From positions 1 to 16,709 of the IMG/VR virus record IMGVR_UViG_3300045988_069484: a DNA stretch of 16,709 bases. One strand, given 5' to 3'. The DNA comes from a virus. Below, piece by piece: positions 1 through 16,709 of this stretch (positions are counted from its first letter, which is position 1; each line of letters begins with the position of its first letter). Below the pieces are notes generated by a model that was given only the letters and a program-made list of their open reading frames with translations, did not search any database and was not told the DNA's origin. The position numbers and the translations under genes were made by a program.

Positions 1-84
1 TTTGGTATTCCGCGAATCTCGAAAATCGTAGCTTCCCCATGCACCTTTCTGCGGTACGCAGTGCGTCCGTTCGCTACGCTCACT
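1..84. repeat. Left inverted terminal repeat. It is mosaic: 1-30 perfect, 31-45 divergent, 46-84 near-perfect. This is the presumed protein-primed replication origin.
   Basis: The reverse complement of 16680-16709 is identical to 1-30. The reverse complement of 16625-16663 matches 46-84 with one mismatch (position 76). The intervening 15/16 nt differ. Similarity beyond position 84 is only patchy. Confidence 0.9.
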
Positions 85-251
85 ACTCCACTTCGTGCTA
101 TCGCACTACGTTCACTTAAATGGGTGCGCACCGTTCGCGCTTTGCGCTTACTCACCTATACTCGCTCGCGTCCGTCGCTCGCACCTGCGGTGGGCTGTTT
201 GTTATTGTATTTATAAAGTACAATAATATACAATTAATTTATACAAATCTA

Positions 252-280
252 TTGACATTAAAAAGGAACAATGCTATAAT
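252..280 (+). promoter_or_regulatory. Consensus sigma-A promoter P1 (left early)
   Basis: TTGACA at 252-257, a 17-bp spacer ending in TGC (extended -10), and TATAAT at 275-280. It lies upstream of the first ORFs. Confidence 0.75.
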
Positions 281-322
281 GTAATTACAGTAAAGGAAAA
301 GCAATAAGAAAGGATAAACGCT

Positions 323-484
323 ATGAAATCATTAACGCAATCAGAACTTGAGGTATTAAAAGAAGCAGAAGATATTCTGTTCAATCATGTTGACTATGGA
401 ACAAACAGTGTATTTGATAAAGCTTTTTGCGAACTGCATAAATCGCTTAAAAGATACAATGAATTAGAAAGGAGGGATGAATAA
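323..484 (+). CDS. Small acidic early protein (53 aa) of unknown function
   Basis: ATG at 323 is preceded by AAGGA. The ORF (MKSLTQSELEVLKEAEDILF...ELERRDE) ends in a TAATG overlap with the next ORF start at 484. It falls below the ORF-track length cutoff. Confidence 0.5.
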   Translation: MKSLTQSELEVLKEAEDILFNHVDYGTNSVFDKAFCELHKSLKRYNELERRDE

Positions 485-831
485 TGGCTGAATGGATAAC
501 CCACGCACAAGTCCGCAGGCGTTTCCAAGACCACTTCTGCGAAACACTTTATGACCACCCGAACTTAGTAACACCTAAAACAGTGGAAGAGTACGAACAT
601 ATGAAAGACATAATGAGAGAGGAAAATGGCACAGCTCTCACTCTGTGCAACACAACATACAGAACTAACTTACATTATGCTTTCATTTATAAGGTGAAAG
701 ACCACGTCTATGATAACGGCAAATACTATATCGCATATATAACAAACGACCAGCGTATAGACGTACCAATTAGTAAATCATTAATAAAGGAGTATTATTC
801 ATGGATATTAGAAAAATTAAAAGAATCATAA
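484..831 (+). CDS. Hypothetical early protein (115 aa)
   Basis: The ORF has a strong RBS (GAAAGGAGGG) about 8 nt upstream and is translationally coupled to the preceding small ORF. I recognised no family motif. Confidence 0.65.
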   Translation: MAEWITHAQVRRRFQDHFCETLYDHPNLVTPKTVEEYEHMKDIMREENGTALTLCNTTYRTNLHYAFIYKVKDHVYDNGKYYIAYITNDQRIDVPISKSLIKEYYSWILEKLKES

Positions 832-938
832 AAAATCTTATAAAGTCAATTATTTCAATCTTAGTATTAACAACTATTTTTCTTGCCACATTTTATTGGG
901 TTGCCGTTATTGTGAATTTCTTTGTCCCGATGCCATAA
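801..938 (+). CDS. Small membrane peptide (45 aa): basic N-terminus plus one hydrophobic helix
   Basis: ATG at 801 follows AAAGGAG (787-793). The translation is MDIRKIKRIIKNLIKSIISILVLTTIFLATFYWVAVIVNFFVPMP. Confidence 0.4.
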   Translation: MDIRKIKRIIKNLIKSIISILVLTTIFLATFYWVAVIVNFFVPMP

Positions 939-972
939 ATTACCAATAGCATTTTTGGAGGTGCATGTAAAA

Positions 973-1074
973 ATGAGAAAATTTAAAATTATTGCTACAT
1001 ATTTGACAGCTATTTTCATTGTGGTATATGTTTTCATTCAGACAATTACACTTGATTATCTAACATTATTTTAG
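973..1074 (+). CDS. Small membrane peptide (33 aa)
   Basis: ATG at 973 follows GGAGG (957-961). The translation is MRKFKIIATYLTAIFIVVYVFIQTITLDYLTLF, with the same architecture as the preceding peptide. Confidence 0.35.
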   Translation: MRKFKIIATYLTAIFIVVYVFIQTITLDYLTLF

Positions 1075-1094
1075 AAAAAACTTTTAAAAACTAC

Positions 1095-1123
1095 TTGACA
1101 TTTCAAGTAACATCTGATATAAT
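1095..1123 (+). promoter_or_regulatory. Consensus sigma-A promoter P2 (replication operon)
   Basis: TTGACA at 1095-1100, a 17-bp spacer ending in TGA, and TATAAT at 1118-1123. Confidence 0.75.
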
Positions 1124-1128
1124 TAATA

Positions 1129-1310
1129 ATGTAAGGAAGATAAAAAATTTTTTCCAACTTACATACCACACCATACGGGCGGTGCCCACAGCATCGTCCA
1201 CTCACAAAAAATAACAGATATTCCGACACCCATGTAGGCGAAAAAAATCGGTGGCAACGTGTAAAGGTTCGATTCCTTTTATCTGATTCGGCTTCAAATA
1301 GAAGTCGCTC
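1129..1310 (+). ncRNA. Candidate structured 5' leader or ncRNA with a tRNA-like T-arm/acceptor module
   Basis: There is no convincing ORF between P2 and the RBS at about 1345. Three structures are visible:
- A hairpin, ATGTAAG (1129-1135) paired with CTTACAT (1158-1164).
- A T-arm, AAAGG-TTCGATT-CCTTT (1263-1279), closed by a 6-bp stem of CAGATA (1215-1220) with TATCTG (1280-1285).
- A hairpin at 1289-1307. Confidence 0.3.
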
Positions 1311-1360
1311 ATTCAGCAGTCTAGCAAGCACAAACAAAATGAAAAGAGGTGAAAGGCAAA

Positions 1361-1672
1361 ATGGCAAGAGCAAGAAAAGTAACAAGAACAATTTCTTCAA
1401 CTAAGGTAATCGTTATGTGTGTAGACACAGAGACAGCTAAGGTTAACAACTACGAGGTAACAATCGCAGGTGCTTACACAGATGATAAGAAGCTGATGAA
1501 AGCAGTCACTAAAGTAGTAGAGACAGAAACGCTTAAACCAGTATCAGTTGTTTCAACAGAAGTTATCGAGATATTGTATGGAATGGATGAACAGAAGTTT
1601 ATCGAAATGGCAGATGTATTACCGCCAAGAGACAAAAAAGAAGTAGATAAAAATGCAGATGTAGAAGCATAA
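1361..1672 (+). CDS. phi29 p6-like double-stranded DNA-binding protein (candidate), 103 aa
   Basis: ATG at 1361 follows AGAGGTG (1345-1351); the ORF track starts it at an upstream GTG. It is the first gene of the replication operon, has an acidic C-terminal tail, and matches phi29 gene 6 in size and position. The assignment rests on synteny and recalled similarity only. Confidence 0.4.
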   Translation: MARARKVTRTISSTKVIVMCVDTETAKVNNYEVTIAGAYTDDKKLMKAVTKVVETETLKPVSVVSTEVIEILYGMDEQKFIEMADVLPPRDKKEVDKNADVEA

Positions 1673-1697
1673 GTAAAAGAAAAAGGAGAAAATAAAA

Positions 1698-2057
1698 ATG
1701 AGTAAAATCACAATCACAAAAACAAGTAGAGAGTTAACAGAAGTAGAACAGTATCTTATGACAATGGACGCAGGAATTACATCCATGAAAGATGTAGCAG
1801 ACGGCACTTCAATTCCAGTAGATGCATACATTGAATATAAGGACACAAAGAATGACGGAACAGAGGCAGAGCTTCTTTCAATCATTACAGTTGACGGAAA
1901 GGTATATTCAACACAGTCCGCAACTTTCAAGAGTTCTTTAAAGTCAATTCATGAGTTGATGCACGGTAAACCGTACGCAATTGTAAAACGTAGCGGAGAA
2001 ACAAAAGCAGGTAGACCATTTGTTGACTGTGGTCTTGATGTAAACTCAGTAAAATAA
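1698..2057 (+). CDS. phi29 p5-like single-stranded DNA-binding protein (candidate), 119 aa
   Basis: It has a strong RBS (AAGGAG). It sits between the p6-like and terminal-protein genes, as in phi29. The segment ADGTSIPVDAYIEYK...ITVDGKVYSTQS resembles the phi29 p5 pattern (DGT.I...A...YK....DG..YS..S) as I recall it. Confidence 0.5.
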   Translation: MSKITITKTSRELTEVEQYLMTMDAGITSMKDVADGTSIPVDAYIEYKDTKNDGTEAELLSIITVDGKVYSTQSATFKSSLKSIHELMHGKPYAIVKRSGETKAGRPFVDCGLDVNSVK

Positions 2058-2105
2058 GTAAAGTATTTTTTCATAGCAAAATGATTTTCTTTCCTAAAAT
2101 ATAAT

Positions 2106-2132
2106 GGGTGGGCAGAACGCCTACCCTTTTTT
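2106..2132 (+). terminator. Intrinsic terminator or attenuator inside the early operon
   Basis: Stem GGGTGGGC (2106-2113) pairs with GCCTACCC (2119-2126) with one G-T wobble. The loop is AGAAC and a TTTTTT run follows at 2127-2132. Confidence 0.65.
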
Positions 2133-2158
2133 ATCTAAATGTGAGAGGTGTGATAAAA

Positions 2159-2950
2159 TTGAAAAAGAGCAAATCAAAGTATAGTCAGTACTATAAGCAA
2201 TATCAGCGCAAAGTATCAGCATTAAGAAAACAGAATATTGAACTCCGTGGCGCGAACGTATACCAAACAGAAACCCAGTTGCGTAAATGGGGTATCCAAG
2301 GAAGAGACTTAGCAAAGATAACAAGACAGTTAAAAGCAGATATAAAGAATCTTTCAAAACAGGAAGCCTATTCAACAGCAACAGGGGAAATCTCAACCGT
2401 TGGTAAACTTAAACACGAACTTGCTTCTGAACGTGCAAAGCGTAGTGCAGAGACAAGAAAGCGTAATAAAGAATCTGCTAGGGAATTTTGGACTAGTGAT
2501 AATCTACCAACTACACACGATTTAGATGGCGAATATCATTTGAATCAGCCACAGTTGGGGGATATCACAAATAGCAACTTTATTACAGAGTTTTTAAGTC
2601 GTATAACATCACCAATTCCAACAGAGACTATATACGGCAATAAAAGAAAGAACGCTAATATAGAAAGAGCGCAAGAAGCGCAGTCAGCTCTATTAGCACT
2701 TTATCGCAATACTTTAAGTAAAGATGGTGAAATAGCTGTAGGAGAACGCCTTGCGAATAACTGGGATGCAATAAAGTTGCACTTGGAAGTAGTTTTAACC
2801 GATTCAAAAGGCGTGAATGTTGCTTCTTCATTGGAAGCTATTGGAGAAATTATTAGTGGTAGGACATTATCTGTTGTAGAACGAGATGCCTTAAATGATG
2901 AACAGGAATCGCTTTATTCATGGGATATAGAGGATAACACTTATGAATAG
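2159..2950 (+). CDS. Candidate terminal protein (DNA-priming protein)
   Basis: It lies immediately upstream of the DNA polymerase and overlaps it, as in phi29 gene 3. The N-terminus is basic and the C-terminus acidic. I place the start at TTG 2159, 8 nt after AGAGGTG (2144-2150), because the track's upstream extension (2108-) runs through the terminator hairpin. Confidence 0.55.
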   Translation: MKKSKSKYSQYYKQYQRKVSALRKQNIELRGANVYQTETQLRKWGIQGRDLAKITRQLKADIKNLSKQEAYSTATGEISTVGKLKHELASERAKRSAETRKRNKESAREFWTSDNLPTTHDLDGEYHLNQPQLGDITNSNFITEFLSRITSPIPTETIYGNKRKNANIERAQEAQSALLALYRNTLSKDGEIAVGERLANNWDAIKLHLEVVLTDSKGVNVASSLEAIGEIISGRTLSVVERDALNDEQESLYSWDIEDNTYE

Positions 2951-4943
2951 TAAACGCACAACAAGAATGTTCATGTGCGACTTTGAAACCACAGTATACG
3001 ACAATCAAGACCACACAGAAGTGTGGGCAGTTGCCATTGTAGAACTATTCACAGAGAATGTTACAATCCTACATCGTATTGAAGATATGTTCACGTACTT
3101 TCGTGCGTTAGATACAAACATCATAGCATTTTTCCACAACCTAAAATTTGACGGTGCTTTCATCCTTGATTACTTACTAGCGCAGAAGAAATATCCACAG
3201 GCATTAAATAACGATAATGGCGTGTATTCATGGAAAAAGAACAAAGAAATCCAAACCAATGAAGTCCGTTATAGCATATCAGATAAGGGTATGTGGTATT
3301 CTATTACACAGAAACTACCAAACAATAAGTTATTGGAGTTCCGTGACTCTTTGAAGTTGTTACCATTTTCCGTTGAAGTTATTGGTAAATCATTCGCAAC
3401 GAAACATAAAAAGCTAGATATGGAATACACTGGCTATAGATATGCAGGATGTGAGATTACTGAAAAGGAGAGAGAGTACATTGCAAATGATGTTCTTGTA
3501 GTAAAGGAAGCACTTGAAATCATGCTAGAACAGGGACACGATAAATCTACTATTGGGTCATGCTGTTTGGAAGAGTTCAAAAAAGGCTATGACAAGACAG
3601 ATTACGCACAACTATTTCCCGACATATACAAGATAGAAACAGGTATAACAAAGTATCCTACTTTTGGTGATTACATCCGAAAATCATATCGTGGTGGATG
3701 GTGTTACCTTGTAAGAGGAAAAGAAAATAAAATATACTATAAAGGCACAACAGCAGATGTTAATAGCCTATATCCATCTATGATGCACTCCGACAGCGGT
3801 AACTTTTACCCAGTTGGAAAACCACACTATTGGAGTGGAAACTTTATACATGAAGAAGCCTTAAAAAAAGATCCACAAGGTGATCCAAGATATTTTTTCT
3901 TACGTATCCGAACAAGGTTTCACGTGAAACATGGCTACTTGCCATTTATACAGATAAAAGGGTCTCCGCTCTATCGTGGTACAGAAATGCTAGAAACAAG
4001 TGACGTATACAGTAAGAAATACGACAAGTATTTTCCGTATTACTATGATAGCGGGAATAACAGACATGAAGCTATTGTAGAAATGGTTGTTACTTGTACC
4101 GATTATTATTTGATGCTAGAACACTATGACTTATATGATTTTGAAATCATAGATGGCGTATGGTTCTACGCCATGAAAGGTATCTATGACGAATATATTA
4201 ATAAGTATGCAGAGATTAAGCAGAAAAGCAAGGGCGCACAGCGTACTCTTGCAAAGCTGTTTCTTAATAATCTCTATGGTAAGCAGGCATCTTCTAAAGA
4301 TAGTTCATTCAAGATAGCGTATGTAAAAGATGATGAATCACTTGGTTTTATAAGGCAGGAAGAAAACAACAAGAAAGCAGGCTACATTCCTTGTGGTTCT
4401 GCCATTACATCATATGCAAGAGAGTTTACAATCCGAGCCGCCCAAAAGAATTACCATGGCGTTAATGAAAGAGGTTTTATATACGCCGATACTGATTCTA
4501 TTCACTGTGATTTACTGCCCGATGAAATTGTTGGTATAAGAGAACACCCAACGGAATTTAACTCATGGTCATTAGAGTCGTGTTGGGATATTGCGACATT
4601 TACAAGACAGAAAACATATATCGAACATGTAACGCATGAAAACAGAGAACCAATAGAAGAACCGTTTTATGATGTGAAGTGTGCAGGTATGCCTAGTAAA
4701 TGCAAGAATCTGTTTGTGCTATCCATGCAAGGTAACGCAGATATTAACGGTTATAAAGAACCAAGAACAGGAACACACAAGGAATGGTCAGAAGAAGAAA
4801 AACAGTTCTTATTTAAAGGTAGTGCCCCTATTAAACGTGATTTATCAGATTTTAAGATAGGCTTAAAAGTGCCAGACAAGTTACGACCTAAAAGAATGAG
4901 GGGCGGCGTGTTACTCGTAGAAACAAGTTATGAAATGAGGTAG
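2943..4943 (+). CDS. Protein-primed family-B DNA polymerase (phi29 gp2-like)
   Basis: All expected motifs are present: Exo I CDFETT, Exo II FHNLKFDGAF, Exo III YIANDV, motif A DVNSLYPS, motif B KLFLNNLYGK, motif C YADTDS, and the KxY region RQKTYIE. A TPR1-like segment (GYLPFIQIKGS) is also present. Confidence 0.95.
   Translation: MNSKRTTRMFMCDFETTVYDNQDHTEVWAVAIVELFTENVTILHRIEDMFTYFRALDTNIIAFFHNLKFDGAFILDYLLAQKKYPQALNNDNGVYSWKKNKEIQTNEVRYSISDKGMWYSITQKLPNNKLLEFRDSLKLLPFSVEVIGKSFATKHKKLDMEYTGYRYAGCEITEKEREYIANDVLVVKEALEIMLEQGHDKSTIGSCCLEEFKKGYDKTDYAQLFPDIYKIETGITKYPTFGDYIRKSYRGGWCYLVRGKENKIYYKGTTADVNSLYPSMMHSDSGNFYPVGKPHYWSGNFIHEEALKKDPQGDPRYFFLRIRTRFHVKHGYLPFIQIKGSPLYRGTEMLETSDVYSKKYDKYFPYYYDSGNNRHEAIVEMVVTCTDYYLMLEHYDLYDFEIIDGVWFYAMKGIYDEYINKYAEIKQKSKGAQRTLAKLFLNNLYGKQASSKDSSFKIAYVKDDESLGFIRQEENNKKAGYIPCGSAITSYAREFTIRAAQKNYHGVNERGFIYADTDSIHCDLLPDEIVGIREHPTEFNSWSLESCWDIATFTRQKTYIEHVTHENREPIEEPFYDVKCAGMPSKCKNLFVLSMQGNADINGYKEPRTGTHKEWSEEEKQFLFKGSAPIKRDLSDFKIGLKVPDKLRPKRMRGGVLLVETSYEMR
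3917..3930. repeat. Palindrome GTTTCACGTGAAAC, copy A (inside the polymerase gene)
   Basis: It is a perfect 14-bp palindrome. The same 14-mer recurs at 7456-7469 and 10541-10554. Confidence 0.9.
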
Positions 4944-4948
4944 ATAAC

Positions 4949-5152
4949 ATGAAAATTAGAATGCAAGATGTTGTGAAACATTGCGTGGAGATGAAGAAAG
5001 ATTGCTATTTTTGCGTTTACCACAAAGACGGGGAATGTTTAGTTAATATTGATGGATATATACCTAGTGTATTTTCTGAATATGTTGGTTTATGTGGTAA
5101 TTCGCCCGAACTGGCAAAAGCACTATATACAAACGAGGAGTTAGAACTATGA
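4949..5152 (+). CDS. Small 4-Cys protein (67 aa), paralogue 1
   Basis: RBS is GAGGT. Cysteines fall at positions 12, 19, 22 and 30, with an IP dipeptide at 38-39. Confidence 0.6.
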   Translation: MKIRMQDVVKHCVEMKKDCYFCVYHKDGECLVNIDGYIPSVFSEYVGLCGNSPELAKALYTNEELEL

Positions 5153-5343
5153 AAATAACAGTAAGGGAATTAATAGAAATATGTTCATCAAATTATAATC
5201 GAGGTTGTGAGGGTTGTGACTTCTACGCATACAAATGTTATATGCCAACTTATCCTCATATTCCACGTGACGCAAAGAAACACAGCAAATTTAAGAAAGA
5301 GAAAGAACTGAATAAAGAAGTTGAATTAAAATTAGATAAGTAA
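5149..5343 (+). CDS. Small 4-Cys protein (64 aa), paralogue 2
   Basis: RBS is GAGGAG, with an ATGA overlap to the previous ORF. Cysteines fall at positions 12, 20, 23 and 30, with IP at 38-39. The C-terminal tail is lysine-rich. Confidence 0.6.
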   Translation: MKITVRELIEICSSNYNRGCEGCDFYAYKCYMPTYPHIPRDAKKHSKFKKEKELNKEVELKLDK

Positions 5344-5350
5344 AAAAACA

Positions 5351-5382
5351 AAAAGGTACAATGCATAAGCAAAGTACCTTTT
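5351..5382. terminator. Bidirectional intrinsic terminator between the convergent early operon and the ATPase gene
   Basis: Stem AAAAGGTAC (5351-5359) pairs with GTACCTTTT (5374-5382). T-rich tracts follow the hairpin on both strands: TTTTATT on plus and TTGTTTTTTT on minus. Confidence 0.7.
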
Positions 5383-5446
5383 ATTATATCACAAACTACT
5401 GGTGAAAACGGTCTAAAGCCTGTTAGGGCAAGGGAGCAACCCCGAC

Positions 5447-5495
5447 CATAGAAACAGCGATTTCTTTCACTCGTGCGTTCTGTTTCTATGTTTTT
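5447..5495 (+). terminator. Second plus-strand hairpin with T-run (back-up terminator or end of a small RNA)
   Basis: An 11-bp stem pairs CATAGAAACAG (5447-5457) with CTGTTTCTATG (5480-5490). The loop is 22 nt and a TTTTT run follows at 5491-5495. Confidence 0.5.
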
Positions 5496-5520
5496 CGCTT
5501 TCTGACAGTAGATGATACCA

Positions 5521-6552
5521 TTAATAACTAAGAGCCTGTAACACAGCTTCTTTGCACTGTAAGTCTTTGAATCGGAAACAACCACGTTCAAAGAAGTACC
5601 TCATATTAGACAAGAACAAGTCGTTGCTCTTTAGCATCACATAATTGACGTTGTGATCATCTGTCGTAATACTGATTCTATAAGGATATGTTTTATCTGC
5701 TCTATCATCACAGTAGATAATACCTAAGTTCATATACTCTTTAATCGCATAGTCTCTACCAAGATACCGAAGTGTTGCAACATAAGTACACTCTCCAACA
5801 GGTTTCTCAATAAATGCATTGCTATCATTAAGGTAAGTAGCTTGTGCAGAATAAGCCACGTAATCATCATTGATAAATGCACGATTGAACCCACTTTCTG
5901 TCTGAGCCTTACTTGCGCTTTCGTTATAACCCTGCTCTAGCACGAACCCATTCCCACGTAAGAATTTCGTATCAGATTTAAGTCTGTTTGAAATCTTCAT
6001 GGCAATATAATATGGGTTAATCAGTGAAACAGGGTTCGCCATCATATATACAGGGACATAACGCACTTGTTTTCCCTGTCCACGGGCAATAGAGGTGTGT
6101 ATAGAAATGAATTTCTTAACTTCATCTGAGCAGTAACGGTTTGTTTCACTTTGAAACTCGTCAAAAATAAGACAGCTGATATCACTGAACATATGAGAGT
6201 TCTTCTTAACGGCATCCGCATTGTTAAGTGCCATAGCATAACCACAGGAAACGTTATTCAAAAATAACTCATGAAACTTCCCATGCATCATTGGTTTGCT
6301 TGTCATTTCATATTCATTGAAAAATAATTCTTTGATATCTTTAAAAAATTTCTCTGCTACACCACTAAGCTCGTAATCGTAACGATAGAGCAATCCAAAC
6401 TTTTCGCCCTTTGACAAAAATTTATTAACTACCAATTTGCCAAAGTAAGTTGTCTTACCGCCAGTACGGTTACTTGTTACCATGTATATTTCAGGTCTTT
6501 TATTATTTAGGTCTAATAGACTTAATAGTTTTGTACCGTCATAATAACTCAT
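5521..6552 (-). CDS. DNA encapsidation ATPase (phi29 gp16-like)
   Basis: Walker A is present as NRTGGKTT, and a Walker B-like CLIFDEF also occurs. The size (343 aa) is typical. RBS is AGAGGTG. It is the only convincing minus-strand gene. Confidence 0.8.
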   Translation of the reverse strand: MSYYDGTKLLSLLDLNNKRPEIYMVTSNRTGGKTTYFGKLVVNKFLSKGEKFGLLYRYDYELSGVAEKFFKDIKELFFNEYEMTSKPMMHGKFHELFLNNVSCGYAMALNNADAVKKNSHMFSDISCLIFDEFQSETNRYCSDEVKKFISIHTSIARGQGKQVRYVPVYMMANPVSLINPYYIAMKISNRLKSDTKFLRGNGFVLEQGYNESASKAQTESGFNRAFINDDYVAYSAQATYLNDSNAFIEKPVGECTYVATLRYLGRDYAIKEYMNLGIIYCDDRADKTYPYRISITTDDHNVNYVMLKSNDLFLSNMRYFFERGCFRFKDLQCKEAVLQALSY

Positions 6553-6569
6553 TTTATCACCTCTTTTAT

Positions 6570-6598
6570 ATTATAGCATAAAATAGACAAACTGTCAA
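6570..6598 (-). promoter_or_regulatory. Consensus sigma-A promoter for the ATPase gene
   Basis: The minus strand reads TTGACA (6598-6593), a 17-bp spacer ending in TGC, then TATAAT (6575-6570). Confidence 0.75.
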
Positions 6599-6620
6599 TT
6601 ATTAAACAGCATGTATTTTA

Positions 6621-6637
6621 ATAGACACGGTGTCTAT
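6621..6637. promoter_or_regulatory. Palindromic candidate operator between the divergent promoters
   Basis: The sequence is ATAGACAC-G-GTGTCTAT, with 8-bp arms. A further half-site, ATAGACA, lies at 6583-6589 inside the spacer of the ATPase promoter. Confidence 0.4.
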
Positions 6638-6651
6638 AATTATACAATATG

Positions 6652-6680
6652 TTGACAAACATACATTATGATGATATAAT
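6652..6680 (+). promoter_or_regulatory. Consensus sigma-A promoter for the lysis and structural (late) operon
   Basis: TTGACA at 6652-6657, a 17-bp spacer ending in TGA, and TATAAT at 6675-6680. Confidence 0.75.
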
Positions 6681-6707
6681 TAAATAAGAAAGGATGTGAT
6701 TAAAGCT

Positions 6708-6911
6708 ATGGATATGAACGCAGTAACAACAGCAATTTCAACGCTTGGTTTCCCTATTGTGATGTGCGGTGCTATGTTTTGGTACATGATTAAAGAAAAA
6801 GATGCACATAAAGCAGAGATGGACAGCGTGACAGAAGCATTAAATAATAACACATTGATTTTGCAGAAGTTATGCGACAGACTGGACGGTGACAAAGATG
6901 GCAACGTATAA
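6708..6911 (+). CDS. Holin, BhlA/UviB-like (single N-terminal transmembrane helix plus charged coiled C-terminus)
   Basis: The sequence MDMNAVTTAISTLGFPIVMCGAMFWYMIKEKD... has the BhlA/UviB architecture. It lies directly upstream of the amidase and overlaps it. The start is ambiguous: GTG 6696, ATG 6708 or ATG 6714. Confidence 0.6.
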   Translation: MDMNAVTTAISTLGFPIVMCGAMFWYMIKEKDAHKAEMDSVTEALNNNTLILQKLCDRLDGDKDGNV

Positions 6912-7659
6912 TGTGCACGGTGGACACTCTTTAAAATGCCGTGGTGCTAGCGATTTACTGGATGAAGTAAATGAAGATAGAGCTGTAAAAAATAAGTTAA
7001 TCGAACTATTAAGAGCGAATGGCAATACAGTATATGATTGTACAGATGACTACAGTACAACACAGAACAAAAATTTATCTTCTATTGTTTCTAAGTGTAA
7101 CGCTCATACTGTGGACTTGGATATATCAATTCACTTAAATAGCGCAAGAAACGACAGAGTAGGTGATGGAAAATGTGGTGGTGTAGAGGTCTACGGATAT
7201 GATGATAGAATCTATGGTGTAGCTTATAAGATTGCAGAGAATATTGCTAACACACTTGGTATTGGGTTTCACGGTTCTCCCGTGAAATACGAAAAAGATT
7301 TACGTGTCCTAAGAGAAACAAAAGCAAAAGCGATTCTCATTGAATGCTGTTTTGTAGATGATAGAGACGATGTAAGCCGTTGGGATTCTACAAAGTGTGC
7401 TATGGCTATTGCATCTGCTCTTGGGTGTAAAACAAACGTGAAACCACAGACAAATGTTTCACGTGAAACATATTTTCCAGTTTTTAAGTTAAATAGCTGT
7501 TCCATTGTAGATTGCTTAAGATCAATCAATGTGGATTCAAGTTTTGTGTATCGTAAGCGTATTGCAAGTAAGAACGGTGTAGCGAACTATAAAGGCTCAG
7601 CACCACAGAATGACAAACTGGTTTCACTTGGTAAGAAAGGAAAGCTTATTAAACCGTAA
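6898..7659 (+). CDS. Endolysin: N-acetylmuramoyl-L-alanine amidase (Amidase_3 type) with a C-terminal putative wall-binding module
   Basis: Amidase_3-like signatures are HGGHS, ISIHLNS and ILIECCFVDD. It follows the holin. The C-terminal roughly 60 aa (..YKGSAPQNDKLVSLGKKGKLIKP) resembles modules seen in clostridial lysins. Confidence 0.8.
   Translation: MATYNVHGGHSLKCRGASDLLDEVNEDRAVKNKLIELLRANGNTVYDCTDDYSTTQNKNLSSIVSKCNAHTVDLDISIHLNSARNDRVGDGKCGGVEVYGYDDRIYGVAYKIAENIANTLGIGFHGSPVKYEKDLRVLRETKAKAILIECCFVDDRDDVSRWDSTKCAMAIASALGCKTNVKPQTNVSRETYFPVFKLNSCSIVDCLRSINVDSSFVYRKRIASKNGVANYKGSAPQNDKLVSLGKKGKLIKP
7454..7471. repeat. Palindrome ATGTTTCACGTGAAACAT, copy B (18 bp, in the endolysin linker)
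   Basis: It is a perfect 18-bp palindrome. The stretch 7450-7470 is identical to 10535-10555 (21 nt). Confidence 0.9.
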
Positions 7660-8696
7660 TGGCTATCAACATCAACAAAGGTTATCAATGGGCAATCAAT
7701 ACTTGCAACGCCCCAAATGTGGGATACTCTCAACAGTACCGATATCAAAAGACGGTAAATGGTATCACATATTATGATTGTTCCACGTTTGTTGGTTATG
7801 CAGTAATCGAAGCAGGATTCCCATTAAATATTAGTGGCTTCTATACTGGAAATATGGTAAGTATCTTAAAAGGGTTAGGGTTTACACAGTATGATAGCAA
7901 AGATGTAGAATGGAAACCATTTGACATCTTATGGCGAAGTGGGCATACCGAGATATGCTATCAAGGTGGCGGAGTGGGTAAAGGTATTACAATGGGAGCA
8001 CATACCAACGGTATCCCACTAGCTGACCAAGTAAGCATCAATAACAGTGAATCAACAGCAAACAGCTTTCCAATTCTACTGAGATACGGTGACGGCGGTG
8101 CGACCGGAATAGGCGCCAGTATATATGTAATCTCTGCGTTATGCGGTAATGCTTGGAGAGAATCAAATATCAACCCTGCTCTTAACGAGCGTGGTGGCGG
8201 TGGTTTCGGACTATTCCAGTGGACAGGCGGAAGAAAGACAGCATTGCTTAACTACCTTAGTTCACAAGGCTTATCAAGTACAGACCCTAACGGGCAGATG
8301 CAATACTTGATTGAAGAAAATGACTGGATTGGTACAAGCCACGGTATCTCTTCACTTGATGAATTCTTACATTCAACCAGTACAGATATTGCAGGGCTAA
8401 CCGAAGCATTTATGTCATGTTGGGAAAGACCTGGTGTTCCTGCTCTTGAAGAGCGTATACAGAACGCAAACAAATGTTACAATTACATTCAGACTCATGG
8501 TAACGACACTTCAATCAACAGATGGGTAGCAGAGGACAGATATTTAACAGAAGCAGAAATACTTAACAACGCAGTTTTAATGTACCGATTTTATAGCGTA
8601 GGTGGTGGTGGCGGTGGCGGTACACCTTATAAGCCAAAATCAAAGTTCCCTATGTGGTTCGCTATAATCGGTGGCGGTATTCAAAGGAGATACTAA
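7659..8696 (+). CDS. Tail-associated peptidoglycan hydrolase (functional analogue of phi29 gp13): NlpC/P60 endopeptidase plus phage tail-lysozyme-like domain
   Basis: NlpC/P60 motifs are YDCSTFVGY and GHTEICY. The tail-lysozyme-like motif is GNAWRESNINP...GGFGLFQWTGGR. A poly-Gly run is followed by a short hydrophobic C-terminal tail. Confidence 0.7.
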   Translation: MAININKGYQWAINTCNAPNVGYSQQYRYQKTVNGITYYDCSTFVGYAVIEAGFPLNISGFYTGNMVSILKGLGFTQYDSKDVEWKPFDILWRSGHTEICYQGGGVGKGITMGAHTNGIPLADQVSINNSESTANSFPILLRYGDGGATGIGASIYVISALCGNAWRESNINPALNERGGGGFGLFQWTGGRKTALLNYLSSQGLSSTDPNGQMQYLIEENDWIGTSHGISSLDEFLHSTSTDIAGLTEAFMSCWERPGVPALEERIQNANKCYNYIQTHGNDTSINRWVAEDRYLTEAEILNNAVLMYRFYSVGGGGGGGTPYKPKSKFPMWFAIIGGGIQRRY

Positions 8697-8697
8697 A

Positions 8698-9012
8698 ATG
8701 GCAGTTTTATCGAAAGAGGATTTTTTAAATCTAATCAAAGAGCGCACAAAAGACAGCACAGATGATGACACCTTAAAATTTATTGAGGATGCAACAGACA
8801 CAATTAACTCACTGTCAGATTCAGACGGGGTAGATTGGAAAGCTAAGTGTGAAGAAACAGACAAAATGTGGAGACAGAAATATAAAGATAGATTCTTTTC
8901 CGCAGGTGATAGCGCAGGAAATAATCATAAAGCAAAAGATGAAGAAGAGGAAGAGGAAGAAGAAAAAGACAAGGAAATTGTAGCAGAAAATTTTGACGAA
9001 TTATTTAAGTAA
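8698..9012 (+). CDS. Scaffolding protein (candidate)
   Basis: ATG at 8698 follows AAAGGAG. The protein is small and acidic with an E-run (EEEEEEEEK). It lies immediately upstream of the major capsid gene. Confidence 0.55.
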   Translation: MAVLSKEDFLNLIKERTKDSTDDDTLKFIEDATDTINSLSDSDGVDWKAKCEETDKMWRQKYKDRFFSAGDSAGNNHKAKDEEEEEEEEKDKEIVAENFDELFK

Positions 9013-9025
9013 AGGAGATGTAAAA

Positions 9026-10507
9026 ATGGCTCACAGAGTTAAACTAACTACACTTGATGCTAGTTCTCTGAAAATCATTAACACAATTAGAGAAAATGCA
9101 TCTTATGAGTATCAGCAAAATGTACCAGTAATTACTGATGCCAAAATGATTCCTAAAGTTGGGGAAATCATTGTAGGAAACGGATCACTACAGAATCAGT
9201 TCCTTAACGCGCTCATGAACAGAATCGCAAAAGTTGTGATTGAGAGTGCAACATTCAACAACCCATATGCACACCTTAAAAAGGGTTATCTTGAAACAGG
9301 TGAAACAATCGAAGATATCTTTATTGGTATCGCTAATGTTGTAGAATATGACGCTGAAAAAGGCGAAGCAAGAGAGTTCAAGAGAAATCTTCCGGACGTA
9401 AGAAGTGCTTTCTACGTTATGAACTGGAGAACACAGTACCCTCTTACAATCCAGGATGAAGACCTTAGAATGGCATTTACATCCATTGATGGTGTAACTT
9501 CATTTATCGCCAAACTGGTAGACGGTATTTACACAGCAGCTGAATATGATGAATTCTTACTATTCAAATATCTACTAATTAAAGCCATTTCACACGGTAA
9601 GACTACTCCTGTTTCAATCGGTGACGGTACAACACTTACAAATGATGCAAGCAAGTATAGAGGTATTTCTAACAAGCTTACATTTATGTCTAAGAAATAC
9701 AATCAGGCAGGAGTAAGAACAACAACACCAAAATCAAGGCAGGCTATCTTTATGGATGCCGAGTACAATGCGAAATTTGATGTAAACGTTCTTGCAAGTG
9801 CGTTCCACATGGAAAAAGCAGACTTCATGGGTAGACTTCACTTGATTGATGACTGGACAAGTTTTGACAACGAAAGATTTAATATCATTCGTGCAAATTG
9901 TGACTCAATCGAAGAGGTAACGGCAGAAGAACTTAAAGCAATGGAAAATGTAAAAGCTGTTCTTGTAGATGAAAATTACTTCCAAGTATATGACAACTTG
10001 TCAAGAATGACAGAACAGTATTGTGCAAGTGGTATGTACTGGAATTACTTCTATAACACATGGAAGACTGTGGCGGTTTCACCGTTCTCAAACATGGTTA
10101 CTTTCGTGATTGACGGTGCTGATATCGCACAGCCTGCAACAGTAACAGTTGAAGTTAGTAGCAAAGATATTGCAGAAGAAGCAACAGTATTTACACTTGA
10201 AGTGCAGGACGATAATGTATCTCTTGCGAACGGTGCTTACCAGTTTGTACAGACACAGGATGCAGTAACTAACGGAATCGCAATCCACAAGTATGGCGCA
10301 GTTATCTTCCCGGCAGGAAAGACCACAACTACACTTGAAATGATTTACGGTGGCTACAAGTATACAACAGATACAGCACTTACAACAGCTTCTAATGTGG
10401 GTGATACAATTGTCTTTAACAAGGGTGATGCAGTAGCGCTTACGGTAGAAGGTGGAAAAACTGTGGCTGACGAGCATACAACAAAAGGAGTTAAGAAACT
10501 TAACTAA
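9026..10507 (+). CDS. Major capsid protein with a C-terminal Ig-like domain (phi29 gp8-like architecture)
   Basis: ATG at 9026 lies 8 nt after AAGGAG. The position after the scaffold fits. The C-terminal roughly 130 aa are T/V-rich and beta-rich, like the BIG2 domain of phi29 gp8. A strong hairpin lies downstream. Confidence 0.7.
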   Translation: MAHRVKLTTLDASSLKIINTIRENASYEYQQNVPVITDAKMIPKVGEIIVGNGSLQNQFLNALMNRIAKVVIESATFNNPYAHLKKGYLETGETIEDIFIGIANVVEYDAEKGEAREFKRNLPDVRSAFYVMNWRTQYPLTIQDEDLRMAFTSIDGVTSFIAKLVDGIYTAAEYDEFLLFKYLLIKAISHGKTTPVSIGDGTTLTNDASKYRGISNKLTFMSKKYNQAGVRTTTPKSRQAIFMDAEYNAKFDVNVLASAFHMEKADFMGRLHLIDDWTSFDNERFNIIRANCDSIEEVTAEELKAMENVKAVLVDENYFQVYDNLSRMTEQYCASGMYWNYFYNTWKTVAVSPFSNMVTFVIDGADIAQPATVTVEVSSKDIAEEATVFTLEVQDDNVSLANGAYQFVQTQDAVTNGIAIHKYGAVIFPAGKTTTTLEMIYGGYKYTTDTALTTASNVGDTIVFNKGDAVALTVEGGKTVADEHTTKGVKKLN

Positions 10508-10518
10508 TTAAAACTTTC

Positions 10519-10556
10519 GTGTTTCACGTGGGATACAAATGTTTCACGTGAAACAC
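10519..10556 (+). promoter_or_regulatory. Strong hairpin after the capsid gene, with no U-tract
   Basis: GTGTTTCACGTG (10519-10530) pairs with CACGTGAAACAC (10545-10556), giving a 12-bp stem and a 14-nt loop. It contains palindrome copy C (10540-10555). Confidence 0.6.
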
Positions 10557-10575
10557 CACAGAAAGGAGAATAACT

Positions 10576-11055
10576 ATGGCAAAACAAACTTATGCAGATA
10601 ATGTTGATTCAAACGGCGTTGCTTATAAAACCGTAGGCGATAACATAAGAGAGGGAGCAAAAGGCGCTGAAAGTGTTGTTAAAGCTTTACAATCGGAAGA
10701 TATTACGTTTGATATGCAGGCGTTAATGAATGTACTGCCGTTTATGGATAGCACAAAGAAAATTATAGAAATTAATATATCAGCATCTAACGGTATATGG
10801 CATGCCGATAAATTTGAACAGCTTAACTCGCCATATGGTGTTGGTATTAATGCCAAATGTTATGGACATTTAATTGGGGAAATTAATAGAGGGGGAATAA
10901 TAGATGTTAATAAAATTACTCCGGTTGTAACAGCATCCCCGACAGGAACAAATAAAGCTTATATTAAATTTTCTTCTGGAATAACAAATAATGATGATGT
11001 AACCGATACTAATATTAAAATGTTCATTGTAACTGACAAAACAGTAGAGGGGTGA
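10576..11055 (+). CDS. Hypothetical structural protein (159 aa), at the position of phi29 head-fibre gene 8.5
   Basis: It has a strong RBS (AAAGGAG) and lies between the capsid and tail-knob genes. I recognised no motif. Confidence 0.5.
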   Translation: MAKQTYADNVDSNGVAYKTVGDNIREGAKGAESVVKALQSEDITFDMQALMNVLPFMDSTKKIIEINISASNGIWHADKFEQLNSPYGVGINAKCYGHLIGEINRGGIIDVNKITPVVTASPTGTNKAYIKFSSGITNNDDVTDTNIKMFIVTDKTVEG

Positions 11056-11059
11056 TACC

Positions 11060-12679
11060 TTGATTGAACCAAAAACAGATATCCGACTCCTAACCAACGT
11101 CCCTCTTGACCCAACCTACAACCACACCATTCGTTTCACAGACGTAACCGCCCAAAGCACCTACTTTGCGAACAAAACAAAACACCAATTATCACGACAA
11201 TCCTATCAGCGTGTGCAACGTGGTTACGCAAAAGTCCAGTTACCCGCAGATGATTGTTACGACTGCAACTATATGATGTTTCGCAACACTTCCTACGGTT
11301 CAAAGTGGTTCTATGCGTTCATTACTGGTGTAGAATACCTCAACGACAACGCCTGTTACATTACATTCGTGCTAGACGTTATGCAGACATGGTGGTTTGA
11401 CTTTACCATCCGAGACAGTATGGTTGTTCGTGAACACAGTGCCACAGATGCAATCGGCGATAATATCCTACCCGAACCTGTGAAACTTGGAGAGTATGTA
11501 GAAGGTAGCACTGGTGGAAGTATAAACCTGCTAAAAAATCTTTCTGTAGTGGTTGCAATTTGTGACAATGAAGAGCAAAATATCGGTGGTTTGTTTGAGG
11601 GCGTGTATTCGGGTTGTACCTATTACGCTTTCGATGTTACATCGGAACTTGAAAGAGAAAAGCTATTTGCACTAAACCTAAAATATGTTCAAAGTCCCGA
11701 TAGTATTGTAGCTATGTGGATGTGCCCAACAATGTTTATCGGGTCAAAAGATGATGACGGTAAAATCAAAAATACAAACACTGGTTCTTCCTACGATTCA
11801 GATGGCACAGAGATTTCTCCTGTAAACCCTGCTACAACATCTCTGAATGGTTATATGCCAAAGAACATGAAAATGTATACTTACCCATATAACTATTTCC
11901 AGTTTGACAATGGTGTAGATAATAGTCTTGTTTTAAGGTATGAATTCTTTGAGAACTTAACACCAAGATTCCGTATTGAAGGTACAAAGAATACACCCGT
12001 AAAAGCGTGCGTATATCCAACGCACTACAAGGGTAGTGGAGAAACACCATACAGAATGGAGTCACTAAACATGATGGACTTTCCAATGTGTAGTTGGAAT
12101 AATGACGCTTACAAAGTGTGGCTTGCACAGAACACCTACATCAATAAGGTTAAAATGGCACAAACCGTTACAAACTCAACAGTTGGTGCTGTAGCAGGTA
12201 TGACAATGGGAGCATTAAGTGGAAATCTTGGCGGTGTAGTTGGTGAAGCTGTCAACGCAATCATGCAACCTGCGAATGAATATGTGAACCAAACTCTTAA
12301 CGAATATGGTGCAAGCATCCAAGCAGACTTATTCAGAGGAACACTTGGAAACAGTAACTTGCTAGTCGCACAGGGAGAAAACAAACTGTTCTATCGTAGA
12401 ATGTGCATCCCTTATGAATACGCACGAAGCATTGATACATTCTTTACCATGTTCGGGTACGCTTGCAACAGGGTGAAACAACCTAACGTTTGTAGTGGTC
12501 AAGGTCTAAGACCTCATTGGAACTACATTCAGACAAGCGGATGCGTTGCTCGTGGCAGTGTTCCTGCCCCTGATATGCAAGTTATCTGTAAGATTTTCGA
12601 TAGCGGAATCACATTTTGGGAAAATGGTGAGGAAATTGGCAACTATTCGTACGACAACAGCCCCCGTATAAAGAGGTGA
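11060..12679 (+). CDS. Tail knob / distal tube protein (phi29 gp9-like)
   Basis: The TTG start at 11060 follows GAGGGGTGA. The N-terminus (IRLLTNVPLDPTYNHTIRF) resembles the gp9 N-terminus as I recall it. A G/A-rich hydrophobic loop (VGAVAGMTMGALSGNLGGVVGEAV, about 12155-12270) resembles the gp9 membrane-penetrating loop. Confidence 0.65.
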   Translation: MIEPKTDIRLLTNVPLDPTYNHTIRFTDVTAQSTYFANKTKHQLSRQSYQRVQRGYAKVQLPADDCYDCNYMMFRNTSYGSKWFYAFITGVEYLNDNACYITFVLDVMQTWWFDFTIRDSMVVREHSATDAIGDNILPEPVKLGEYVEGSTGGSINLLKNLSVVVAICDNEEQNIGGLFEGVYSGCTYYAFDVTSELEREKLFALNLKYVQSPDSIVAMWMCPTMFIGSKDDDGKIKNTNTGSSYDSDGTEISPVNPATTSLNGYMPKNMKMYTYPYNYFQFDNGVDNSLVLRYEFFENLTPRFRIEGTKNTPVKACVYPTHYKGSGETPYRMESLNMMDFPMCSWNNDAYKVWLAQNTYINKVKMAQTVTNSTVGAVAGMTMGALSGNLGGVVGEAVNAIMQPANEYVNQTLNEYGASIQADLFRGTLGNSNLLVAQGENKLFYRRMCIPYEYARSIDTFFTMFGYACNRVKQPNVCSGQGLRPHWNYIQTSGCVARGSVPAPDMQVICKIFDSGITFWENGEEIGNYSYDNSPRIKR

Positions 12680-12686
12680 TAACAGA

Positions 12687-13583
12687 ATGGGAAGAAACAG
12701 AAGAAACAAGTATAAAAACCAGTTTTTTACAAGTATGTTGCAAAACTGTGTATCATGGCAATACTACTATAACCGATTAAAAGAAATCGCAATTTCTTGT
12801 ATCGAATGGAAGAATTTACCTGATACCGTTGATGCTAGATTCTTGGAGCTGACATTGTTTGAAGATGGTGCAGGGGTTTACTTTAATGACGAGGTGCTTG
12901 GAAACTTATTTTTACAGGCTACTCTTGACGGTAGACTTAACGTATACCGTGAACCAATTAAGACAAAAGCGTATGCCGTCACAGGATACTTAAAAGACTT
13001 GAACGAGACAAACAGCGTTATTATCCATAACAATATGCTACACACGAACAGTGTAGAAGCTTGTAAAATGTTTGCTATGCGACTGGCTAATATTGACCGA
13101 ACGATTGATGTTAATATCAACGCACAGAAAACTCCAGTTCTTATTAAGTCAGGTGAAAATGAACGTTTATCCATGGTAAATCTGTATCAACAGTATGACG
13201 GAGGAATGCCTTTCATCTTTGGTAGTGACCAGTTGAACACAGACAACATCACAGCACTTAGAACAGATGCACCTTTCGTTGCACCACAGCTTTACGAATT
13301 GAAGACAAACATATGGAATGAAGCACTGACTTATCTTGGTATTTCAAACGTAAACATTACGAAGCGTGAACGACTTGTGAGTGACGAAGTGAACCGTTCG
13401 CAGGGTGGTAGCATTGCAAGCAAATTTAGTCGTTTACATGAACGCCAAACAGCAGTAGAGAAAATCAACAAAATGTTCGGAACAAATATAAGCGTAGATT
13501 ACAGGGAAGAACTTGATACAAGTTTAGATGGAATGGGTATTTCAAGTGGAACATCACAGAAAGGAGATGAAGCAGATGAGTAG
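12687..13583 (+). CDS. Head-tail connector / upper collar (portal) protein (phi29 gp10-like)
   Basis: NAQKTPVLIK and TDAPFV match conserved gp10 segments (NAQKTPVLIR, TDAPYV). The WKNLP motif is also present. The N-terminus is basic and the size is about 300 aa. Confidence 0.85.
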   Translation: MGRNRRNKYKNQFFTSMLQNCVSWQYYYNRLKEIAISCIEWKNLPDTVDARFLELTLFEDGAGVYFNDEVLGNLFLQATLDGRLNVYREPIKTKAYAVTGYLKDLNETNSVIIHNNMLHTNSVEACKMFAMRLANIDRTIDVNINAQKTPVLIKSGENERLSMVNLYQQYDGGMPFIFGSDQLNTDNITALRTDAPFVAPQLYELKTNIWNEALTYLGISNVNITKRERLVSDEVNRSQGGSIASKFSRLHERQTAVEKINKMFGTNISVDYREELDTSLDGMGISSGTSQKGDEADE

Positions 13584-14319
13584 TTACACAACAGAGGTGC
13601 GCTTTATCTGCGAATCTCTTTACCGACTGGAACACAGCACTGGCTACAACGATATTGAAAAGATACTGAAATCTGTTCACAAAAAGATATTCGACTTTGA
13701 CTATCCTATCTTTGATGAAAAATACAGAAGTGTGCTTGAAATCAAGATTTTGAGACACTTCTATACAAGGGAAATAGGATTCGAAACAGTTGGGTTATGG
13801 AAGTTGAAACTTGCTGACAAAATGAACACGATTATGCCGTACTACAATAAATGGTACGCTAGTGATTTACTGAAATTCAATCCTTTATGGGATACAGATT
13901 TTACTAGAAAAGGTAATATTAACGACACAAACAAAAGTAAAAACGACAGCACAGCAAACAGCACAACAACAGACAACGGTAAACAGACAAACAGTAACGC
14001 TAGTAAGACAAAAAGTAAATTTTCTGATACTCCGCAGGGTAGTATTTCAAGTCTTGAAGATGACACTTATCTTACAAGCGCAACGATTGACGAAACAAAC
14101 GGAAGTTACACCAATACAACAGAAAACACAAACGTAAACAATTCAACAAACACAATAAATCATGAAGCCACAAACTTAAACGAATACTTTGAAATCGTAC
14201 AAGGTAATCGTGGAGTATTTGACAATGGAACAATGTTAAAACATTACCGTGATACATTCACTAACATTGACAAGATGTTGTTAAAAGAAATGGAAGATTT
14301 ATTTATGCTATTATGGTAA
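13576..14319 (+). CDS. Lower collar protein (phi29 gp11-like)
   Basis: ATG at 13576 lies 9 nt after AAAGGAG and overlaps the connector stop. The position after the connector fits. It has an FSDTPQG motif and an N/T-rich low-complexity insert. Confidence 0.6.
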   Translation: MSSYTTEVRFICESLYRLEHSTGYNDIEKILKSVHKKIFDFDYPIFDEKYRSVLEIKILRHFYTREIGFETVGLWKLKLADKMNTIMPYYNKWYASDLLKFNPLWDTDFTRKGNINDTNKSKNDSTANSTTTDNGKQTNSNASKTKSKFSDTPQGSISSLEDDTYLTSATIDETNGSYTNTTENTNVNNSTNTINHEATNLNEYFEIVQGNRGVFDNGTMLKHYRDTFTNIDKMLLKEMEDLFMLLW

Positions 14320-14331
14320 AGGAGAAAACTT

Positions 14332-16404: not shown

Positions 16405-16435
16405 AAGGGATTTATCCTAGCAATATGTAAAATGA

Positions 16436-16470
16436 GAAACGCCCTAGTGTGTAATGCACTGGGGTGTTTT
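16436..16470 (+). terminator. Late-operon intrinsic terminator
   Basis: Stem CCCTAGTG (16442-16449) pairs with CACTGGGG (16457-16464). The loop is 7 nt. The stem is extendable by A-T and G-T pairs and is followed by TGTTTT. Confidence 0.65.
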
Positions 16471-16624
16471 GAATGTACAGAGGTGGGTGAGTGCAAAGCA
16501 CGAATGGAGAGTATCTATTGCAGTGAACGTAGCACGACAGTGGTTCTGTACAGCAGTGAGCCGAACGAAGTGAGGTGTAGTGTATACTTAAGTGAGCATA
16601 GGAGCGACAGCGAAGATGCGGAAC

Positions 16625-16709
16625 AGTGAGCGAAGCGAACGGACGCACTGCGTACCGCAGAAAGTGTGCTCATATGGTATACGATTTTCGAGATTCGCGG
16701 AATACCAAA
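16625..16709. repeat. Right inverted terminal repeat (mosaic, partner of 1-84)
   Basis: 16680-16709 is the exact reverse complement of 1-30. 16625-16663 is the reverse complement of 46-84 with one mismatch. The 16-nt patch at 16664-16679 differs from left positions 31-45. Confidence 0.9.

Follow-up and report, generated by a model that had tools for sequence, protein, structure and literature searches.

Background

The centromere-like site parS is bound by dimers of the chromosomal ParB protein (Spo0J). Host-type sites of this kind are established for phage phi29, where they were shown in 2005, and the original work on them is reportedly that of Meijer et al. 2005 (EMBO J 24:3647), which is cited in PMC2731898. 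In the latter paper phi29 is reported to carry five parS sites, together with evidence that Spo0J takes part in segregation of the phage genome into the prespore. Here we describe a further case in a likely gut lineage, namely a 16,709-bp stretch of viral DNA (IMG/VR record IMGVR_UViG_3300045988_069484, positions 1 to 16,709; the window hereafter), which is a complete linear phi29-like podophage genome containing three copies of a perfect palindrome. On the basis of sequence comparisons we regard it as probable that these palindromes are host-type parS sites, at which a dimeric host ParB is predicted to bind and through which the phage would use this protein to segregate or retain its DNA.

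In phi29 we located four one-mismatch sites (TGTTTCACGTGGAACA; Table 1). Phage Nf has two sites, in the connector (10042) and in the endolysin linker, and in the Clostridium symbiosum phage CS229P1 a single perfect site follows the ATPase stop codon directly; no parS sites were found in GA-1. The Clostridium perfringens phage phiCP7R shows seven sites, all intergenic, six of which are arranged as tandem pairs 25-26 bp apart; its genome also encodes a SpoVG-like protein. The plasmid prophages P1 and N15 likewise combine a phage genome with a centromere-like site for segregation, but encode their own ParA and ParB and use a non-chromosomal parS, whereas the window is devoid of par genes. In a limited full-text search, which does not prove absence, parS was mentioned neither in a 2024 review on the diversity of phi29-like phages nor in the original phiCP7R paper, and nothing relevant turned up on parS in gut or clostridial phi29-like phages.

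The window phage resembles phi29 and Nf in being small and virulent, in having a linear genome replicated by protein priming, with several host-type parS sites and no parB of its own, and in the use of the connector 3' tail and the endolysin linker as positions, to which its close relatives add the terminator by the ATPase gene. It differs from them in that its sites are the perfect palindrome TGTTTCACGTGAAACA rather than the B. subtilis-type TGTTCCACGTGAAACA, in its probable host, a gut Lachnospiraceae anaerobe, and in the lack of a Spo0A-box signature. Furthermore, its site-bearing endolysin is of the Amidase_3 type rather than the lysozyme plus LysM type of phi29, an extra copy lies in the polymerase gene, and the intergenic copy doubles as an arm of a conserved RNA hairpin.

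The repeated palindrome matches the bacterial parS consensus

The 14-bp palindrome GTTTCACGTGAAAC is present exactly three times in the window, at 3917-3930, 7456-7469 and 10541-10554 (copies A, B and C). The original prediction had drawn attention to these copies, and its coordinates, reading frames and intergenic placement of copy C were confirmed by our search, as were the extension of copy B to an 18-bp palindrome and the 21 nucleotides shared identically by copies B and C (7450-7470 and 10535-10555). No other perfect palindrome of 14 bp is present in the window and, terminal repeats aside, no other 14-mer is repeated; none of 200 dinucleotide shuffles of the window contained a copy, and no palindromic 14-mer was seen twice in 300 Markov simulations.

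What had been missed is the identity of the motif, which with its flanks reads (A)TGTTTCACGTGAAACA(T), the idealised chromosomal parS consensus. The 16-mer TGTTTCACGTGAAACA is the experimentally used consensus parS, with the window motif as its 14-bp core, and the 20-bp duplex that was crystallised with ParB, GATGTTTCACGTGAAACATC, contains the 18-bp palindrome of the window (PMC7383237). When compared with the B. subtilis parS consensus TGTTNCACGTGAAACA (PMC7022226), two window copies match at 16/16 positions and one at 15/16. The Noc-binding site (NBS, TATTTCCCGGGAAATA), a related palindrome of 16 bp to which a ParB paralogue of Firmicutes binds, is discriminated from parS by its central bases (PMC7383237); as the window motif has CAC-GTG rather than CCC-GGG at its center, plus a G at position 2, it is of the parS type.

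Bacteria of many phyla contain the exact 18-mer, in at least 120 genome stretches. In a Lachnospiraceae metagenome-assembled genome (L304) it lies immediately upstream of parA and a parB gene whose product contains the ParB_N, HTH_ParB and ParB_C domains, and in Mobilisporobacter (L293) two exact sites flank parA, beside gidA and gidB. The identical 18-mer thus stands at the parAB loci of two genomes of Lachnospiraceae, the family to which the host of the phage likely belongs. The window sites resemble the chromosomal parS sites of Firmicutes and other bacteria in being identical over 16-18 bp to those of the Lachnospiraceae parA-parB operons, in being multi-copy and in often lying inside coding sequence. 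They differ in that their setting is the 16.7-kb genome of a virulent phage instead of the surroundings of a chromosomal origin, and in lacking a linked cognate parA or parB. Pfam and PHROGs searches of the window and of the accessory proteins of its close relatives detected no ParB_N, HTH_ParB, ParA or helix-turn-helix domains, and hence no phage-encoded reader of the sites.

Conservation and positions of the sites in related phages

A capsid-based search recovered 63 related viral contigs, and the close clade considered here comprises 21 genomes counting the window (capsid at least 92% identical, 349 kb). This clade contains 74 exact copies of the motif versus 0.002 expected, distributed over seven positional classes (Table 1), with flanks that extend the palindrome to 18 bp. 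Relatives gain and lose copies across the seven positions, and many copies lie 3-12 nucleotides upstream of a ribosome-binding site. Of these classes the window has the three most frequent, while its connector copy is decayed and its terminator tip 'empty'. In each case the sites are placed where a fixed 16 bp is tolerated, namely a variable stretch of the polymerase, the endolysin linker, the intergenic hairpin and the C-terminal tail of the connector.

The exact motif is absent from 43 relatives with 50-64% capsid identity and from one remote relative (32%). These 44 more distant relatives, which share the same mode of replication, bear on the possibility that the palindrome forms a hairpin or cruciform in single-stranded DNA displaced during protein-primed replication, for example as a pause signal or a signal for loading of the single-stranded DNA-binding protein (SSB). 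Since both the polymerase and the SSB of the window phage are of the phi29 type, its replication must yield displaced single strands, but the lack of the motif in relatives that replicate likewise, and the identity to parS that it leaves unexplained, speak against such a signal, and to our knowledge none is known in phi29-like replication. This explanation, which had been listed among the candidates, found nothing in its support as a general account and we consider it extremely improbable.

The decayed site in the connector gene of the window corresponds in position to those at 10445 in phi29 and 10042 in Nf, and three positional classes of the gut clade mirror those of phi29. The endolysins that carry the site in phi29 and Nf are not homologous to that of the gut clade, and the matching positions therefore argue for repeated placement at permissive positions. 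Among the 120 matches listed for the exact 16-mer in IMG/VR there are about 20 phi29-like phages from diverse lineages, in whose contigs a terminator-like hairpin often bears the site at its tip; one contig has it within the terminal repeats. The identical 16-18-mer is also shared by phage lineages whose proteins are only 23-60% identical, and even by an inovirus-like genome. The latter (PQ006098.1; 5.8 kb, from rodent faeces) has five perfect 16-bp parS sites, three of which directly or nearly directly follow gene stop codons, and suggests that small chronic phages might also borrow host ParB. More generally, a BLAST census found parS-like 18-mers in 468 of 50,697 phage records.

These observations also help assess whether the palindrome is instead an operator, recognized by a dimeric DNA-binding protein of the phage itself (a small early protein, for instance) through which transcription or replication is controlled. 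A perfect palindrome is indeed what a dimeric binder would be expected to recognize, several early open reading frames (ORFs) have no detectable family, and several copies lie just upstream of genes. However, none of the four consensus sigma-70 promoters of the window is near any parS copy, two of the three window copies are deep inside genes, and searches of the window and of the accessory proteins of the clade revealed no ParB, helix-turn-helix or ribbon-helix-helix domain. Moreover, an identical 16-18-mer across divergent lineages points to one conserved cellular reader rather than to co-evolving phage regulators. We accordingly hold a phage operator to be very unlikely: the earlier proposal of a dimeric regulator is retained as regards a dimeric DNA-binding protein, which is the most likely reader, but this would be host ParB acting in partition and not a phage regulator of transcription.

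Selection at the level of nucleic acid

Two of the copies lie within genes, copy A being read as AGG TTT CAC GTG AAA CAT (R-F-H-V-K-H) and copy B as AAT GTT TCA CGT GAA ACA (N-V-S-R-E-T). In the endolysin linker both the flanking codons and the length of the linker vary, whereas the 14-mer is invariant and exact in 14 clade genomes. At the polymerase site, outgroups including phi29 read F-Y/E-I/L-K-D/E/P, with F-Y-I-K-D/E as the ancestral peptide; in the clade the residues are F-H-V-K-H/Q, as encoded by parS, which is exact in 14 genomes, and the three clade members without parS at this position read RFRIKD or RFRVKD. F-H-V-K-H and a perfect parS were also acquired at this position, independently, by a phage of a separate lineage (L157), whose polymerase is 57% identical. 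The occurrence of this peptide both in the clade and in L157 therefore implies that the DNA motif was selected at the expense of the protein at least twice. The comparison indicates that the constraint acts on nucleic acid and not on protein, which upholds the contention of the original prediction, as the motif stays unchanged at positions where neighbouring codons, and even the residues that are encoded, differ. For annotation this means that perfect palindromes in phage genes can be host-factor sites that override the protein sequence.

The polymerase copy arose in both instances through point substitutions without any insertion or deletion. This is difficult to reconcile with the view that the palindrome is a selfish or recombination-prone cassette, copied by template switching during strand-displacement replication and of no benefit to the phage. 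That view draws on the 21 nucleotides common to copies B and C, on the gain and loss of copies among relatives, and on a 42-nucleotide hairpin cassette found at the dyad centre of parS in three positional classes and both orientations, which implies that sequence has been exchanged between copies. Nevertheless, there is no reason for a selfish cassette to equal the bacterial parS consensus, and the copies sit where they are least damaging and are maintained across the clade; hence we regard this alternative as highly improbable.

Hairpins that overlap the parS sites

A distinct layer of conservation is apparent at the intergenic copy. The 3' arm of a hairpin that follows the capsid gene consists of the right half of copy C and its flank (Table 1). 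As RNA it is predicted to fold with -23 kcal/mol (z = -6.2), and across 14 relatives 97.9% of cells are paired, with four compensatory pairs and two sequences showing a U-G wobble, a level reached by none of 500 shuffles. In one relative (L002) the capsid gene is likewise followed by a hairpin, whose stem is quite different. No T run follows the hairpin in the window and a terminator scan makes no call there; in relatives it is followed by the partly U-rich ATTCTTACTAT. At the connector site the variants GTTTCACGTAAAAC and GTTTTACGTAAAAC are found, with changes from C-G through C.A to U-A that look compensatory. The convergent early operon is separated from the packaging ATPase gene by a bidirectional terminator-like hairpin, whose tip in the window is GCATAAGC (5363-5370), with the parS position empty; in ten relatives the same tip is GTTTCACGTGAAAC (fold -15.7 kcal/mol, z = -5.4).

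Such features raise the alternative that the palindrome and its half-sites are RNA-level elements, whose hairpins terminate, attenuate, stabilise or process polycistronic transcripts, and that the resemblance to parS is incidental. The covariation of the capsid hairpin and its survival of parS loss, the use of the motif as a terminator tip, the nesting of the motif in terminator-like hairpins in other lineages, the apparently compensatory changes at the connector and the frequent proximity to ribosome-binding sites are all consistent with it. But a hairpin role needs no identical 16-18 nucleotides at seven unrelated positions, and it leaves unexplained why unrelated phage families and bacterial parAB loci share this sequence. 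The 14-mer alone would form a stem of only 5-6 bp, the polymerase and endolysin copies show invariance rather than covariation, and an Rfam scan returned no family match at the palindrome sites. Taken as a general explanation, an RNA element is therefore unlikely; the earlier suggestion of an RNA hairpin is supported for the intergenic copy, but does not account for the recurrence at seven positions, in unrelated phages and at bacterial par loci.

The partial copies noted earlier at 10521-10530, 7436-7444, 7267-7287 and 15529-15537 are all present. The one at 7436 lies 11 nucleotides upstream of copy B and folds with it at -10.1 kcal/mol (z = -2.4); no covariation between the two was seen among relatives, which makes the significance of this half-site uncertain. 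That at 7267-7287 is a split palindrome in the amidase domain, TTTCACGG-TTCTC-CCGTGAAA, which resembles two parS half-sites with a 5-nucleotide spacer. Isolated GTTTCAC half-sites number 12 in the window versus about 3.2 expected; we did not use this enrichment as evidence, as the clade-wide ratio of observed to expected (2.5) is within the spread of control heptamers and not conclusive.

Probable engagement of host ParB

With no phage ParB-like or other DNA-binding domain detected and no site near a promoter, loading of host ParB is the most economical reading of the window sites. From the biology of ParB and the phi29 precedent, we envisage that host ParB would nucleate on the phage sites after injection of the DNA and spread along the 16.7-kb linear genome. 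This could couple the phage DNA to the origin-segregation machinery of the host (ParA/Soj and SMC), such that phage genomes would be retained or partitioned rather than lost; in a sporulating host, capture in the forespore might follow, which is what has been reported for phi29. The benefit to the phage could lie in spore entrapment, in partition during a carrier state or in titration of ParB.

In phi29, Spo0A boxes (TGTCGAA) at the early and late promoters suppress the lytic cycle and are an essential part of its spore-entrapment strategy. The window shares one element of that strategy, in that host-type parS sites are present in the genome of a virulent phi29-like phage which encodes no parB. 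We do not claim the full strategy for the window phage, in which Spo0A boxes are not enriched.

Several observations weigh against the engagement of host ParB or restrict its scope. Spo0A boxes number 0 in the window versus 1.9 expected, and are depleted in the clade (16 versus 40.6 expected); spore entrapment is therefore unsupported beyond the parS sites themselves. Further, parS-like 18-mers occur in phages of non-spore-forming hosts such as Microbacterium, Arthrobacter and Listeria, and a sporulation-specific role is therefore not general. Four relatives (L014, L015, L016 and L053) have changed both arms of the capsid hairpin (TTTCGCATG ... CATGCGAAA; the L014-type variant of the parS site is GTTTCATGCGAAAC), and the parS consensus is lost while the hairpin is kept. 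As the arms have changed together with retention of the hairpin, a hairpin that probably forms in RNA is selected here in its own right, as a stabiliser, an attenuator or a processing site, and parS overlaps it. In three relatives the connector site has the symmetric variant GTTTTACGTAAAAC. Part of the conservation at the intergenic and connector positions is thus due to hairpin potential and not to ParB.

If host ParB does bind, virulent phi29-like phages of gut Clostridia could be retained, partitioned or packaged into spores, which is relevant to the persistence of lytic phages and to their spread along with spore-forming commensals. C. symbiosum DA229 and phage CS229P1, with its single perfect parS, form a directly usable test system. 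We tentatively raise a broader scenario, which we think somewhat doubtful at present: small phages without partition genes, both clostridial or gut phi29-like and inovirus-like, may have repeatedly gained the consensus host parS as a general strategy, by which a virulent gut phage rides host ParB into daughter cells or spores, with the 42-nucleotide cassette switching individual sites off. Were this to be the case, a strictly virulent gut phage would gain persistence and host-to-host transmission without lysogeny.

Genome context and likely host

The first 30 bases of the window are a perfect inverted repeat of the last 30. In addition to the genes listed in Table 1, it encodes a tail lysozyme and a tail knob protein. 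The four sigma-70 promoters delimit the early transcription units, the divergent unit of the ATPase gene and the late unit. A weak match to the Rfam Clostridiales-1 RNA (23.8 bits versus a gathering score of 48, E = 0.44) lies at 16379-16516 on the plus strand, in the non-coding right end where a phi29-like packaging RNA might be expected; a scan of eight relatives gave no Rfam match at the gathering threshold.

The sole near-identical GenBank record is a human faecal contig. The closest cultured relatives are the C. symbiosum phages CS229P1, P2 and P3 (58.5% polymerase identity), and the nearest bacterial homologues of the endolysin belong almost entirely to Lachnospiraceae. Based on these two lines of evidence we infer that the host is likely a gut anaerobe of the family Lachnospiraceae.

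Table 1. Coordinates of genes, sites and structures in the window, with site classes and inserts in other phages
Feature	Genome	Position	Strand	Details
phi29-type SSB	window	1698-2057		
Protein-primed family-B DNA polymerase	window	2943-4943		
gp16-type packaging ATPase	window	5521-6552	-	
Amidase_3 endolysin	window	6889-7659		Amidase_3 domain aa 12-177, C-terminal domain ~aa 200-252
phi29-type major capsid protein	window	8993-10507		
Connector	window	12687-13583		
Sigma-70 promoter	window	252-280	+	perfect 12/12, extended -10 TG
Sigma-70 promoter	window	1095-1123	+	perfect 12/12, extended -10 TG
Sigma-70 promoter	window	6652-6680	+	perfect 12/12, extended -10 TG
Sigma-70 promoter	window	6598-6570	-	perfect 12/12, extended -10 TG
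parS copy A	window	3916-3931		GGTTTCACGTGAAACA; inside DNA polymerase gene; 15/16 consensus, exact 14-bp core
parS copy B	window	7454-7471		ATGTTTCACGTGAAACAT; endolysin inter-domain linker; perfect 16-bp consensus within 18-bp palindrome
parS copy C	window	10540-10555 (feature 10539-10556)		TGTTTCACGTGAAACA; intergenic, between capsid stop 10507 and next start 10576; perfect 16-bp consensus
Decayed fourth parS	window	13539-13552		ATTTCAAGTGGAAC; connector 3' tail, just upstream of ribosome-binding site of next gene; 3 mismatches to 14-bp core
Half-site	window	7436-7444		ACGTGAAAC; can pair with left half of copy B
Partial copy	window	15529-15537		
Hairpin after capsid gene	window	10514-10561	+	5' arm 10514-10530 including half-site GTTTCACGTG (10521-10530); 3' arm 10545-10561
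Bidirectional terminator-like hairpin	window	5351-5382		AAAAGGTAC ... GTACCTTTT
Class: left-end intergenic spacers	close clade			10 copies
Class: upstream of putative terminal-protein gene	close clade			5 copies
Class: inside polymerase	close clade			14 copies
Class: bidirectional terminator tip by ATPase gene	close clade			10 copies
Class: endolysin linker	close clade			14 copies
Class: after capsid gene	close clade			14 copies
Class: connector 3' tail	close clade			7 copies exact; 1-mismatch site in 4 further relatives
parS site	phi29	10445		connector C-terminal tail, 17 nt before gene 11
parS site	phi29	15903		linker between lysozyme and LysM domains, gp15
parS site	phi29	17243		base after stop codon of gene 16 (packaging ATPase), beside terminator TD1
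parS site	phi29	18760		gene 17
42-nt insert	L002	~7921-7962		
42-nt insert	L007	~7503-7544, ~10630-10680		
42-nt insert	L017	~2230-2275		
42-nt insert	L001	~15440-15500		record orientation
42-nt insert	L272, L278, L281			

A 42-nucleotide insert at the dyad centre

In several relatives a 42-nucleotide segment (for example TCTTCGAACCGTCCACTGGACGCTTCTTGAAATGCTTGGCAA), which forms a GC-rich hairpin, is inserted exactly at the dyad centre of parS and splits the site into two half-sites. Three positional classes and both orientations are represented, and inside the endolysin gene the insert keeps the reading frame. Neither an Rfam family nor a publication describing the insert or its hairpin core was found. 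The insert shares 25 nucleotides with a strongly structured intergenic region of a Lachnospiraceae metagenome-assembled genome (L405, 5915-5939; z = -7.6). Its hairpin core GAASCGTCCASTGGACGSTTC occurs in 59 genome stretches (L406-L463) from several phyla (Coriobacteriia, Rhodobacteraceae, Burkholderiales, Bacteroidales and Clostridia), often in multiple copies within longer palindromic repeats. Its context is sometimes terminator-like, and an Acutalibacter genome has it directly after a 5S rRNA gene, with a T run behind it.

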